A DNA stretch of 64,000 bases from a virus (taxonomy: Duplodnaviria; Heunggongvirae; Uroviricota; Caudoviricetes): IMG/VR virus record IMGVR_UViG_3300042402_004854, positions 1 to 64,000 of that record; one strand, given 5' to 3'. How positions within the stretch are numbered: the stretch's first letter is position 1; each line of letters starts with the position of its first letter. The notes beneath the pieces are model-generated. The model saw nothing but the letters and a program-made list of their open reading frames with translations, did no database searches and was not told the origin of the DNA. Made by a program: the position numbers and the translations under genes. Below are positions 4,888-13,419 of the stretch, one piece after another.

Positions 4888-5852
4888 CATTTTTAGTAAC
4901 AGGCGGCCTAGGCCTTATTGGGCACAACATTGTGCAACGACTACAAGCACGTGAAGAACGGGTTGTGGTAGTGGATACCAAGACCACGTATGGTATTATC
5001 CCACAAGCAGAAATAGACTACTTGATGGCAGAACGTGAAAAAAAGATTGCACCAGACACACCAATCTATCTTTACGACATCACCGATGAGTCAGACATGG
5101 ATTTGCTTATAGGTGAACACCGGCCCCGGGTAATTGTCCACTGTGCAAGTTTTCCCCGACAAAAAGTTGTCAATGCCAACCCTGCGCTGGGTGCAGATGT
5201 CATGATGCGTGGCTTGATCAACTTGCTTGAGAGTGCCAAAAAGTATAAAGTTGAGAGGTTTGTGTACATCAGCAGCAGCATGGTGTACGGAGACTTTGAA
5301 GATGACGTGTTGGAAGATGATGAATGCCGTCCGCAAGGACAGTATGGAATAATGAAACTGTGTGGAGAAGACCTTGTTAAAGATTATAGCCGCCGTTGTG
5401 GTTTTGAGTATGTTATTATCCGCCCCAGTGCTGTATATGGCCCGCTGGACGTCGAAGACCGAGTCGTTGCCAAATTCATGCTCACAGCAATGCGCGGCGG
5501 AGTGCTCCGAGTTAATGGAGCGAACGAAACACTAGACTTTACCTATGTGGATGATGCCGCTGATGGCATTGTTGCTGCCGCAACACGTATCATGTGTCGC
5601 AACATGACATTCAACATTACCAAATCACACAGTGTGAGTCTGCTGGAAGCCGCAGAAATGATTGTGAAGATTGTAGGCAAAGGCACCATCGAAGTGCGTG
5701 ACAAGGATGCAGACTTTCCCAGTCGCGGTGCATTAAATATTGACCGGGCTAGAACCATCTTGGGTTATGACCCCAAAGTAGACGTTGAAGAAGGATTTCA
5801 AAAGTATTATGAGTGGTTAAGTCGATCCACATATTGGAATAAGAATGATTAA
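4884..5852 (+). CDS. NAD-dependent sugar epimerase/dehydratase (extended SDR)
   Basis: N-terminal VTGGLGLIGHNIV (GxxGxxG Rossmann motif). Catalytic YGIMK (YxxxK). 322 aa. Confidence 0.8.
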   Translation: MTFLVTGGLGLIGHNIVQRLQAREERVVVVDTKTTYGIIPQAEIDYLMAEREKKIAPDTPIYLYDITDESDMDLLIGEHRPRVIVHCASFPRQKVVNANPALGADVMMRGLINLLESAKKYKVERFVYISSSMVYGDFEDDVLEDDECRPQGQYGIMKLCGEDLVKDYSRRCGFEYVIIRPSAVYGPLDVEDRVVAKFMLTAMRGGVLRVNGANETLDFTYVDDAADGIVAAATRIMCRNMTFNITKSHSVSLLEAAEMIVKIVGKGTIEVRDKDADFPSRGALNIDRARTILGYDPKVDVEEGFQKYYEWLSRSTYWNKND

Positions 5853-6864
5853 TTCAAATTTTGGATTTACTCCGTTAAAAGAAGTATGGTTGGGAGATTG
5901 TTATCCAGAATTTTTTTACGATCATTTGCCAAACGAAATAGCAGACCCATTTCGGCAAATAACTGAATGGACCAAACAAGATACTAGCAAATTACAAAAA
6001 TTTTTAGAAAGTCGTGGAATAGTTGTTAGACGTCCGGTGTTTTCCTCAATTGATGATTACATCAATCAAAATGATATCTTAGTCAAGCCACCTATATGTC
6101 CAAGAGATCATTATCTTGTTTTAGATAAAACACTTTATAGTTTACACAACAACCTCAAAATAGATCCCTGGGACCACTGGTTAAAACATTATAAATCACA
6201 AGGGTTTGATGTACAGTCTCCTATGAATTTACCTATCAATTGTTTATGTCCTCCTGCGCTGGTTCGTGTTGGGAAGGACTTATATTTAGATCATGACAGT
6301 CATCCTCAGGTGTGGGGATTTATATGTCAGTGGATGGTTGAAGTATCGAAAAAGTACAGAGTCAATGTCTGTTCAACTTCAGGACACAGTGATGGAGTAT
6401 TTTGTCCTGTTGCACCCGGAATAGTCGTTTCAAGTCATTATAAAAATAATTACACTCAAAGTTTCCCCAATTGGGAAGTGTTTGGTATACCTAGTCAGTT
6501 AAATAATTTCAAGCACCTGAAGGATTGGTGGGTCAAGGATCAAGAAATCAACAACAATCAAACATTTAGTCGGCACATACAAACCCAAGCCGCAAATTGG
6601 ATTGGTAATTTTAAAGAGACAGTATACGAAGTCAACATGCTTGTACTTGATGAAAAAAATGTAGTAGCCATGAAAGACTATCCGCCACTGACACAATGGT
6701 TATACGATCGTGGTATTACTGTACACTTTTTTGATTTAAGGACTAGAAGTTTTTGGGACGGCGGATGGCATTGTTTTACATTGGATATTTGTAGAGAAGA
6801 TTCTCAAACAACTGATTTATTTCCAGAACGTGGCGAAAACGGGGTGTATTGGCGACTCAAATGA
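5845..6864 (+). CDS. amidinotransferase-family protein (glycine/scyllo-inosamine amidinotransferase-like)
   Basis: The C-terminus FWDGGWHCFTLDICRED matches the AGAT/StrB1 catalytic-Cys motif [15 protein letters not shown]. Paralogous to 12379..13419. Confidence 0.7.
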   Translation: MINSNFGFTPLKEVWLGDCYPEFFYDHLPNEIADPFRQITEWTKQDTSKLQKFLESRGIVVRRPVFSSIDDYINQNDILVKPPICPRDHYLVLDKTLYSLHNNLKIDPWDHWLKHYKSQGFDVQSPMNLPINCLCPPALVRVGKDLYLDHDSHPQVWGFICQWMVEVSKKYRVNVCSTSGHSDGVFCPVAPGIVVSSHYKNNYTQSFPNWEVFGIPSQLNNFKHLKDWWVKDQEINNNQTFSRHIQTQAANWIGNFKETVYEVNMLVLDEKNVVAMKDYPPLTQWLYDRGITVHFFDLRTRSFWDGGWHCFTLDICREDSQTTDLFPERGENGVYWRLK

Positions 6865-11251: not shown

Positions 11252-12392
11252 AATATATCCTGCGCTGGCACGCCATCAAGCTGCACCTTACACACAGGCA
11301 TGGCGCGAGTTTGGTCAACATTGGCCGCATACCATTCCCATTCGACTACAAGAATATTGTGACCACCATAATATCAAAATCAACATCTATAATGTTCAAG
11401 ATCAGTTGCCCAACAACACATTTTATCCTGTTGGCTTAGGATTTTTTAATTTTGATATTGACTACTTTGAACTCATGAGCAGTGAGATCCGCCAGGCCTT
11501 GTGTGAACAGCGTGTGCGTGTGTTGTTTTACTATCATGAAGGTGACAATCCTGCACGTATCAAACTTCAACTAGACAAATTGGCCAGAAATCATCGATTG
11601 CCAACCGACTGTTATGTGTTTGTCAGTGCCAACACCGCTGCCAAACAGTTAAAGAACTTTGTGTACTTTACAGACTTTGAGATTTGGTATTATCAACGCA
11701 ATCGTGCTAGTCCTGCACTAAAAATACATTCGGAGCCGAGAGAGCGTGAATTTACTGTGCTTAACAGACTGCACAAATCATGGCGTGCATTGGCCATGGC
11801 AGATTTAAAAAGTCTTGAGTTGCTAGATAACTCATATTGGAGTTACTGTGAGTCTGGTGTGTTTGATGATGCAAAGTGCCCGATTGAAATTGATGCTATT
11901 GCCGGACTACGCACTGCTACTGAAGAGTTTTTAAAATCAGCCCCGTACATCAGTGATGAGTTGGATTTTGATCAACGCAATGATCACAGCACACTTGTGC
12001 CCAAGTACCATGTCAACAGTTATTGCAACATTGTGATGGAAACACATTTTGATGCTGATCAAAGTGGAGGTGCATTTTTAACTGAAAAAACATTCAAGCC
12101 TATCAAACACGGACAACTGTTTTTCATAGCGGGACCAGCAGGCAGTTTACAAGTGTTACGTGACTTGGGGTATCGTGTGTTTGATCATATACTGGACAAC
12201 AGTTATGATCTGGAAACTGATCACACACAACGTTGGCGGGCATTGACCCGAGCCATATACTTTGCTCAACCCGAACTGCCCCGACTGTTTGAACAGGCTC
12301 GAGCTGACATAGAACACAACCAACAGTTATTTCAAGCCACAAAGACCGATCGTTTAAATAGTTTGATCAAGGACATCAATGAACACCATTAA
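11211..12392 (+). CDS. GT10-family glycosyltransferase paralogue 2
   Basis: FLTEKTFKPIKHGQLFFIAGPAGSLQVLRDLGYRVFDHILDNSYD; overlaps the previous gene by 41 nt. Confidence 0.6.
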   Translation: MSLNLIADQVVRGKIYPALARHQAAPYTQAWREFGQHWPHTIPIRLQEYCDHHNIKINIYNVQDQLPNNTFYPVGLGFFNFDIDYFELMSSEIRQALCEQRVRVLFYYHEGDNPARIKLQLDKLARNHRLPTDCYVFVSANTAAKQLKNFVYFTDFEIWYYQRNRASPALKIHSEPREREFTVLNRLHKSWRALAMADLKSLELLDNSYWSYCESGVFDDAKCPIEIDAIAGLRTATEEFLKSAPYISDELDFDQRNDHSTLVPKYHVNSYCNIVMETHFDADQSGGAFLTEKTFKPIKHGQLFFIAGPAGSLQVLRDLGYRVFDHILDNSYDLETDHTQRWRALTRAIYFAQPELPRLFEQARADIEHNQQLFQATKTDRLNSLIKDINEHH

Positions 12393-13419
12393 CTCTTATA
12401 CCAGCTGGCAACCACTTGAAGAAGTTATTGTAGGTCGTGCTTACACCCCAGACTATTTTGATTTTATTGAAAATGCTCAAGTGCGCAATCAATTACAACA
12501 GATTCTCTCTGAGACTGAAGAAGACTTGGCCAACTTGCAAAAGACCATTGAGACTTATGGTGCAAAAGTACGCAGGCCCAAGCTACCCGACAAATACAAT
12601 TTTCAACGTGACCAAATGAAGGGCAACGGTGCACCACTGCCACCACTTACCCCAAGGGACTGGCAGATCACCCTGGGAGATAAACTGTTACGTGTGTTGT
12701 CTATTCCAGAATTAGATTCACTGTGCAACGAGTACGAAGCAGCACAACCTGGTAGTGTGATCAATCCACACGGTCCCACAGGCTGGGACGAAAACTGTAT
12801 CCTTAACCAAGCGTCAGCATCATGCATTGTACGTGTGGGACGTGATGTGTTCTTTGACAACTCAGATTTTTTACGTCCTGATCAGACTCGGTGGATCGTG
12901 GATCATGTGCTAGGACCAGAGTATCGCATACATGAAGCCATTACAGACGGTCATGGTGATGCGGTGTTTGCTATATTGAAACCTGGTGTGTTATTGAGTT
13001 CAAAACACGATGTTAACTTAGACTTAGCACGTGACTTTCCGGGATGGGATGTTTGCAAAATTTGGGATAGTAGTATCTGGGCCGCCATGGAAGTTGGCAA
13101 GTTCAAGTATGAACAAAGCCCGAGTGCTTGGTATGTACAAGGACAAACTCCCACACCAGAGTTTACAGACTTTGTGAACACTTATCTAACCAAGTGGACT
13201 GGATTTGTTGCTGAAACTGTGTTTGATGTCAACTGTTTGGTGCTGGATGAGTCACATGTTATCTTCTCAGCATACAACCGAGAAGTGTTTGACTACTGTC
13301 GCAAGCATAAGATTGAACCTATTATCTCAGAACTGCGTCACAGTTATTTCTGGGATGGTGGTATTAGTTGCTGTACGCAAGACATTCGACGCCGTGGCGG
13401 ACTTGAAACTTATCTCTAA
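12379..13419 (+). CDS. amidinotransferase (AGAT/StrB1-like) paralogue 2
   Basis: The C-terminus VLDESHVIFSAYNREVFDYCRKHKIEPIISELRHSYFWDGGISCCTQDIRRRGGLETYL aligns closely with the human AGAT C-terminus VLMLDEKRV...[24 protein letters not shown]. Confidence 0.8.
   Translation: MNTINSYTSWQPLEEVIVGRAYTPDYFDFIENAQVRNQLQQILSETEEDLANLQKTIETYGAKVRRPKLPDKYNFQRDQMKGNGAPLPPLTPRDWQITLGDKLLRVLSIPELDSLCNEYEAAQPGSVINPHGPTGWDENCILNQASASCIVRVGRDVFFDNSDFLRPDQTRWIVDHVLGPEYRIHEAITDGHGDAVFAILKPGVLLSSKHDVNLDLARDFPGWDVCKIWDSSIWAAMEVGKFKYEQSPSAWYVQGQTPTPEFTDFVNTYLTKWTGFVAETVFDVNCLVLDESHVIFSAYNREVFDYCRKHKIEPIISELRHSYFWDGGISCCTQDIRRRGGLETYL

Follow-up and report, generated by a model that had tools for sequence, protein, structure and literature searches.

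The amidinotransferases with which we compare the proteins described here are human AGAT (GATM; PDB 1jdw) and StrB1, the inosamine-phosphate amidinotransferase of the actinomycete Streptomyces griseus (PDB 1bwd). The aspartate of the catalytic triad, Asp254 in AGAT, is conserved across AGAT, CyrA/AoaA, Amt1, and StrB1 (PMC3684758). Related genes have also been reported in phages. The Campylobacter phages CP220 and CPt10 were described in 2010 as having clusters of five radical S-adenosylmethionine (SAM) genes together with a "putative glycine amidinotransferase" (PMC2853527), and in 2025 two such genes were annotated in Synechococcus phage S-SCSM2R, where the product of one, ORF266, was detected in the virion proteome and the neighbors of the other, ORF309, were named "antibiotic synthesis genes" by the authors (PMC12801897). 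Here we describe two genes, A1 and A2, carried by a 64,000-nucleotide stretch of viral DNA (positions 1 to 64,000 of IMG/VR record IMGVR_UViG_3300042402_004854, referred to below as the window). Like CP220/CPt10 gp088 and S-SCSM2R ORF266 and ORF309, they encode penteins of large myoviruses and are set in islands of radical SAM genes, sugar-tailoring genes, or both; their host is a phage, whereas that of StrB1 is an actinomycete. A1 and A2 are very probably active pentein enzymes of the amidinotransferase branch, belonging to a distinct, phage-dominated, and already auto-annotated clade that we name after its FWDGG motif. We tentatively propose that they are competent members of this large clade of amidinotransferase-like penteins and that they amidinate an amino-sugar or a cyclitol.

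Relationship of A1 and A2 to known amidinotransferases

5845-6864, plus strand: A1, 339-aa amidinotransferase-like pentein enzyme of the FWDGG clade
A1 key codons: Asp88, 6106-6108; Cys135 (at the AGAT Asp254 position), 6247-6249; His181, 6385-6387; Asp183, 6391-6393; Glu258, 6616-6618; Asp305, 6757-6759; Cys310, 6772-6774
12379-13419, plus strand: A2, 346-aa amidinotransferase-like pentein enzyme of the FWDGG clade
A2 key codons: Asp94, 12658-12660; Ser146 (at the AGAT Asp254 position), 12814-12816; His192, 12952-12954; Asp194, 12958-12960; Glu279, 13213-13215; Asp326, 13354-13356; Ser330, 13366-13368; Cys331, 13369-13371

Both open reading frames (ORFs) lie at exactly the boundaries assigned to them in a preliminary description of this DNA, and the C-terminal motifs quoted there were recovered, FWDGGWHCFTLDICRED in A1 and FWDGGISCCTQDIRRRGGLETYL in A2. 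The accompanying statement that the A2 C terminus matches that of AGAT nearly residue for residue captures a real resemblance but overstates it: over the last 21 residues, compared with human AGAT residues 402 to 422, A2 is identical at 12 positions and A1 at 8. A1 and A2 are 30% identical to each other over their full length (E = 1e-37), and they are paralogues, as they had been called, in a broad sense only. Their last common clade spans 122 of 131 leaves, and among 130 sequences ordered by similarity to A1, A2 comes 53rd; because they are thus non-sister lineages of one family, we rejected a recent duplication as the source of the pair.

In searches of PDB sequences, A2 matched AGAT (E = 1e-15) and StrB1 (7e-11), as well as SxtG and HsvA, and A1 matched human AGAT (2.6e-7). 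A joint profile of the A1 and A2 subfamilies (22 sequences) matched AGAT at 3e-21, HsvA at 9e-18, SxtG at 1e-17, and StrB1 at 2e-15, with an alignment that spans the full length of AGAT. As judged from these sequence comparisons, the kinship of A1 and A2 with amidinotransferases is homology and not chance. No hydrolytic pentein branch was among the PDB sequence matches of A1, A2, or the joint profile, and because these searches returned amidinotransferases and no other pentein branch, a better fit to a hydrolase branch was rejected at the level of ancestry. In line with this, our fold test gave a better pentein alpha/beta-propeller match to AGAT and StrB1 than to other pentein branches, and the hydrolytic enzymes (arginine deiminase, DDAH, agmatine deiminase, and peptidylarginine deiminase [PAD]) ranked below the transferases. 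The kinship with AGAT and StrB1 proposed earlier therefore withstands comparison with arginine deiminase, DDAH, and agmatine deiminase, which fit no better by sequence or by fold. The hydrolytic penteins, ArgZ/AgrE and NnhA among them, have the fold and the Asp-His-Asp-Cys core in common with A1 and A2. Both proteins also match phrog_25854 (A1, E = 2e-13; A2, 1e-10), a PHROG that carries no assigned function. An AF2 model of A2 was poor (pLDDT 60) and was left unused.

Residue conservation was assessed in an alignment of 128 full-length representatives with A1, A2, and AGAT (131 sequences, MAFFT), and counts were taken over the 130 family members; the representatives were drawn from an exhaustive profile search that returned 1,103 at E<1e-3, 222 of them below 1e-30. 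Equivalences were compared among three alignments (HMMER profile, 131-sequence MAFFT, and 14-sequence MAFFT), and the AGAT sequence in the main alignment was rebuilt from HMMER output, with residues 322 to 357 entered by hand. The core required for covalent catalysis is retained, namely a Cys nucleophile, a His acid/base, and two Asp residues that clamp the guanidinium or amidinium group. The nucleophile (AGAT Cys407) is Cys310 in A1 and Cys331 in A2 and is kept in 128 sequences, and the catalytic His (AGAT His303) is His181 and His192, respectively, kept in 127. The guanidinium-binding AGAT Asp170 corresponds to A1 Asp88 and A2 Asp94 (125/130), and AGAT Asp305 corresponds to A1 Asp183 and A2 Asp194 (128/130). 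In addition, the clade has invariant residues of its own, F-W-D-G-G ahead of the Cys (within the motif F-W-D-G-G-x-(H)-C-x-T-x-D), the Asp of F-W-D-G-G standing at the position of AGAT Gly402, and a second motif, W-x-G-x3-E-T-x-F-x2-N, present in both A1 and A2; StrB1 and AGAT have their own sequence where A1 and A2 have FWDGG and ET-F-x2-N. A1 has all of the motif residues that are conserved in at least 80% of the 130 sequences, and A2 has all but one.

The known phage relatives fall on both sides of this distinction. S-SCSM2R resembles the window in having two amidinotransferase-like genes, and ORF266 is of the FWDGG type ("LWDGGLHC" and "ETFFDVN"; 29% identity to A2). In contrast, S-SCSM2R ORF309 and CPt10 gp088 are of the canonical type and lack FWDGG, whereas both copies in the window are of the FWDGG type. 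In the 14-sequence alignment, Asp254 is kept in AGAT, ORF309 (FDAAN), and gp088 (MDGAN) and in no FWDGG-type protein. The CP220 and CPt10 proteins are distant relatives (22 to 24% identity), and the CPt10 gp088 gene is set among radical SAM genes beside baseplate genes; ORF309 adjoins DegT-like, radical SAM, and glycosyltransferase genes. The S-SCSM2R genes (L158:2771-3730 and L006:19989-20882) place both types in a single cultured cyanophage, making it a tractable system in which to compare them.

Proposed activity of A1 and A2

Two genes flanking A1 bear directly on its possible substrate:

4884-5852, plus strand: SDR-family NAD-dependent sugar-nucleotide epimerase/dehydratase (Pfam Epimerase, 8e-43; GDP_Man_Dehyd, 8e-33)
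6861-7952, plus strand: DegT/DnrJ/EryC1/StrS-family pyridoxal phosphate-dependent sugar aminotransferase (Pfam PF01041, 1e-53)

The SDR gene matches the dTDP-glucose 4,6-dehydratase model TIGR01181 at 6e-35 and the DegT gene a PseC-like model at 2e-37, both under the model cut-off. A1 begins within the SDR gene, with which it shares 8 nt, and ends in the sequence ATGA, the 4 nt that it has in common with the start of DegT. Other A1 orthologues neighbor genes for DegT, a split thiamine pyrophosphate enzyme, an FkbM methyltransferase, an SDR, an NAD-synthase-like enzyme, and UDP-glucose dehydrogenase. By analogy with the StsC-StrB1 pair, the overlap of A1 with SDR and DegT genes and the sugar-tailoring neighbors of its orthologues support an amino-sugar or cyclitol as the substrate.

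On balance we favor transfer over hydrolysis as the reaction of A1 and A2, with moderate confidence. In the scheme that we envisage, a guanidino donor would give an S-amidino-Cys intermediate on A1 Cys310 or A2 Cys331, which would then be resolved by an amine acceptor. A sugar or cyclitol amine is a tentative choice of acceptor overall, although no other single hypothesis suits this locus better; the most likely candidate would be an amino group placed by the adjacent DegT aminotransferase on an SDR-made keto-sugar or cyclitol-like intermediate. The product would be a guanidino-sugar or guanidino-cyclitol that might be tailored later by carbamoyltransferase, methyltransferase, and radical SAM enzymes, a scheme that would parallel streptidine synthesis, in which StsC is followed by StrB1. 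Without Asp254, the invariant Asp of FWDGG and Glu of ET-F-x2-N probably reshape His positioning and substrate binding, which allows for a donor other than free L-arginine.

A bolder and rather unlikely version is that A1 and A2 represent a virus-specific family that runs thiouronium chemistry with its Cys-His pair and new Asp and Glu residues substituting for the classical triad. With radical SAM, DegT, carbamoyltransferase, and methyltransferase enzymes, the family would then form part of a "streptidine-like" pathway by which jumbo phages make an aminoglycoside-like sugar or cyclitol bearing guanidino or amidino groups. Such a product might decorate the virion or the host envelope or serve as a small-molecule effector. 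If guanidino groups are indeed placed on sugars or cyclitols, viruses would be seen to encode a type of glycan or metabolite chemistry that is new for them.

The module around A1 and A2

The remaining genes of the module are as follows, with conservation counted over 58 related loci with full flanks:

7924-10131, minus strand: 735-aa conserved protein (58/58 loci)
10130-11251 (373 aa) and 11211-12392 (393 aa), plus strand: overlapping paralogous ORFs (58/58 and 53/58 loci)
13416-14903, minus strand: NodU/CmcH-type carbamoyltransferase (Pfam Carbam_trans_C, 6e-48; Carbam_trans_N, 6e-36; 58/58 loci)
14997-15686, minus strand: SAM-dependent methyltransferase (Pfam Methyltransf_31, 5e-24; accessory, 1/58 loci)
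15781-16806, minus strand: conserved 341-aa protein (58/58 loci)

A near-fixed order recurs in these loci: SDR, DegT, the 735-aa protein (minus strand), two paralogues with the motif LTEKTFKPI, A2, the carbamoyltransferase and the 341-aa protein (both minus strand), and radical SAM genes. A2 is present in all 58 and shows the highest conservation within the module (median identity, 83%, versus 50 to 74% for its neighbors). A1, on the other hand, is accessory, being missing from the SDR-DegT junction in 57 of the 58. It occupies this slot in a few relatives (L093, L094, L095, and L103), and its divergence in L094 exceeds that of the adjoining genes (72% identity, versus 88% for SDR and 92% for DegT).

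The 735-aa protein contains three internal repeats, W.P.P.DPPY.YVFGNQWWP...MPTVEYHVPGAT..KYM (with PTVEYHVPGAT in the repeat), and has no match in Pfam, NCBIfam, PHROG, or PDB. Its gene overlaps DegT by 29 nt at its 3' end and the divergent 10130 ORF by 2 nt at its start, leaving zero intergenic space. The paralogous ORFs directly upstream of A2 overlap it and are translationally coupled to it; their common part is the C-terminal ~86 aa only (LTEKTFKPI...GSL..LR..G(F/Y)R.F; 40% identity), and neither Pfam nor PDB, the latter also searched with a 28-sequence profile, gave a match for them. The carbamoyltransferase gene is convergent with A2 and overlaps it by 4 nt. Scans for promoters and terminators gave results at or near chance level and were uninformative on operon structure. 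A ThyX thymidylate synthase gene (3867-4547, plus strand) is the first in a codirectional string with SDR, A1, and DegT, and the order thyX, orf107, SDR is repeated in 28 of the 58 loci.

The island had been called glycosyltransferase rich, a description that could not be verified: no scanned ORF matches a glycosyltransferase family, and the two glycosyltransferase-like candidates match nothing in Pfam or PDB. "TEK" motifs occur in some fucosyltransferases, but this is a lead only, and a glycosyltransferase identity of the 10130 and 11211 ORFs is not confirmed.

Observations weighing against the proposal

Several observations count against amidination of a sugar or cyclitol by A1 and A2. At E<=0.1, neither protein matches PF02274, the Amidinotransf family suggested for checking the assignment, and the Pfam and NCBIfam scans gave no other relevant hit, so that, by contrast with human AGAT, both fall under the Pfam threshold. 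All three independent alignments place Cys135 of A1 and Ser146 of A2 at the position of triad Asp254, which StrB1 also keeps; the column is variable within the clade (S 22, N 22, D 16, C 8, T 8, and E 7 of 130). On the evidence of these alignments, A1 and A2 lack one of the features by which canonical amidinotransferases are defined, and of the catalytic residues proposed for inspection the Cys and His are present in both and the Asp is missing from both. The Arg322 column is hydrophobic and variable rather than conserved (Asp211 in A2 and Lys200 in A1), and only a short T-x-G-H stands in for the Asn300/Met302 loop. At the place of Ser355 there is probably an invariant Glu (Glu279 in A2 and Glu258 in A1), an equivalence that depends on the alignment, being found in two of the three, with Gly/Asp in the 131-sequence one. 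In AGAT, Arg322, Ser355, and the Asn300/Met302 loop are reportedly ligands of the L-arginine backbone (Humm et al., 1997). With the first of these ligands not conserved and the second probably exchanged for Glu, arginine is not established as the donor. The His that precedes Cys in 121 of the 130 sequences is Ser330 in A2.

The gene context adds to these points. Pfam and PDB profile searches recognized no sugar enzyme in the A2 operon, and, unlike in the StrB1 pathway, no inositol-phosphate synthase or inosamine kinase was recognized in the window, although it does contain a fragment of a pfkB-family kinase (34870-35625). A census of the neighbors of distant family members (ten nonredundant loci; 102 ORFs within 5 kb) found one glycosyltransferase and no DegT or SDR, whereas 24 of the ORFs encode radical SAM proteins, 9 of them with SPASM; proteins with the radical SAM motif Cx3Cx2C number 2 to 6 at six of the ten loci. 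Because the recurrent neighbors across the family are radical SAM/SPASM proteins, the sugar context is possibly specific to the lineage of the window. Finally, our literature search turned up no functional work on phage members of the family. Taken together, the interpretation in the preliminary description is partly supported: the homology and the Cys/His/Asp core favor it, while PF02274 membership, the triad Asp, the glycosyltransferase-rich setting, and rarity find no support. Of its guanidinylated sugar or cyclitol, the SDR/DegT context speaks in favor, but the arginine donor is not established and the premise of a glycosyltransferase-rich island is not verified.

Alternative explanations and the radical SAM block

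The radical SAM genes of the window lie beyond the 341-aa protein gene, where they form a block of a density that is unusual for a phage:

16799-34195, minus strand: radical SAM-rich block with seven radical SAM ORFs, a second SDR, and several proteins without a family match in Pfam
16799-18076, 20981-22741, 26401-27801, and 33110-34195, minus strand: radical SAM ORFs (Pfam)
19010-20233 and 22735-23997, minus strand: radical SAM ORFs with an N-terminal SPASM match (Pfam)
27803-29620, minus strand: radical SAM ORF with a B12-binding domain (Pfam)
30563-31486, minus strand: second SDR, interspersed in the block

Three of the radical SAM genes (rSAM425, rSAM407, and rSAM420) are each found in all 58 related loci. 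Together with the radical SAM neighbors of diverse family members, the Campylobacter phage and S-SCSM2R precedents make radical SAM-linked maturation of a peptide or protein a serious rival, if in itself an unlikely one. A1 and A2 would then act with radical SAM/SPASM enzymes in deimination of Arg or amidination of Lys or an N terminus, in maturation of a structural protein or of a product resembling a ribosomally synthesized and posttranslationally modified peptide. Consistent with this suggestion, the neighbors of distant members (L104 to L156) include three Asp/Asn beta-hydroxylases (PF05118) and three proteins like the C-terminal part of Arg-tRNA-protein transferase (PF04377), which hint at peptide or protein modification systems. 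Moreover, the Campylobacter phage relatives lie inside their five-radical-SAM blocks beside baseplate genes without sugar genes, ORF266 was found in purified S-SCSM2R virions (PMC12801897), and the island of the window adjoins baseplate genes and a 4,843-aa ORF. Radical SAM/SPASM enzymes are, however, also typical of aminoglycoside tailoring.

A credible, if likewise improbable, alternative is that A1 and A2 are hydrolases (deiminases or amidinohydrolases), in which water would resolve the thiouronium and a small-molecule guanidino or amidino group would become a ureido or amino group. The transferases come first, by a clear margin, in every sequence and structure ranking, and the adjacent aminotransferase supplies an obvious amine acceptor. 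Should A1 and A2 nevertheless be hydrolases or protein modifiers, they would represent a new functional offshoot of the amidinotransferase branch lacking the canonical Asp.

The lost triad Asp and, in A2, the missing His before Cys might suggest that A1, A2, or both are pseudoenzymes devoid of catalytic activity or serve as scaffolds. PAD4 and other pentein families, however, operate with the same Asp-His-Asp-Cys set and without a triad acid, so that loss of Asp254 does not imply inactivity; moreover, the Cys, His, and both Asp clamps are near-invariant over ~130 diverged sequences, and no other gene of the module is as well conserved as A2, all of which makes this explanation very improbable. 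We also consider it highly doubtful that A1 and A2 are true glycine or lysine amidinotransferases, auxiliary metabolic genes that would turn host arginine into guanidinoacetate or homoarginine, a role to which the name "glycine amidinotransferase" given to family members in some sources and the position of A2 as the most AGAT-like sequence within the sampled family would point.

Distribution of the FWDGG clade and origin of the window

A2 has 1,746 homologues, and the FWDGG clade, with its 1,103 representatives (~1,100 clusters at 50% identity), is large and overwhelmingly viral. A pattern-based scan of IMG/VR confirmed at least 539 loci, and A2 orthologues of 79 to 93% identity occur in at least 80 viral loci. 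Among 185,579 species genomes we found six loci, all on contigs of metagenome-assembled genomes (MAGs); because the back-translated scan patterns are narrow, this does not prove that cellular genomes lack the clade. In public records the proteins are for the most part called "hypothetical protein"; "glycine amidinotransferase" and "inosamine-phosphate amidinotransferase 1" occur here and there, and "DDAH" occurs once. Since the family is so large, so predominantly viral, and already annotated in phages, the chemistry is not rare in viruses, contrary to the earlier view that it would be unusual there. Large phages carry extensive sugar- and radical SAM-rich tailoring islands, and an A2-type enzyme offers a good biochemical entry into them because its clade is abundant and almost exclusively viral and its gene is the most conserved of the module.

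The assignment of the window to a phage was borne out by genes for gp6-like, gp25-like, and gp5-like baseplate proteins with jumbo-myovirus relatives. The nearest relatives of the gp6-like wedge protein are those of jumbo myoviruses, including Atu_ph07, Phosso, SCTP-2, and 121Q (~33% identity), and a cyanophage origin was ruled out on the grounds that the best relatives of the baseplate protein belong to Atu_ph07/121Q-group jumbo phages. A megablast search with a 9-kb region gave no match among reference phages, and the window is thus without a near-identical reference phage. A protein identical to A1 is present in freshwater metagenomes, with the same gene order on one such contig, and the IMG/VR contigs that carry A2 orthologues reach 364 kb among the matches listed. 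The source is a freshwater jumbo phage. One of the MAG contigs (L007; NZ_JBBAKG010000003.1, "Haliscomenobacter sp.," 148 kb) carries an A2 orthologue with 88% identity; it is probably mis-binned jumbo-phage DNA rather than bacterial and is possibly a clue to the host.

Two further features of the window are as follows:

34870-35625: pfkB-family kinase fragment
41370-55901, minus strand: single 4,843-aa ORF, directly upstream of the gp6-like baseplate wedge gene (55901-59335)

The product of the 4,843-aa ORF, presumably a giant fiber or structural protein, could be what the tailoring island modifies.

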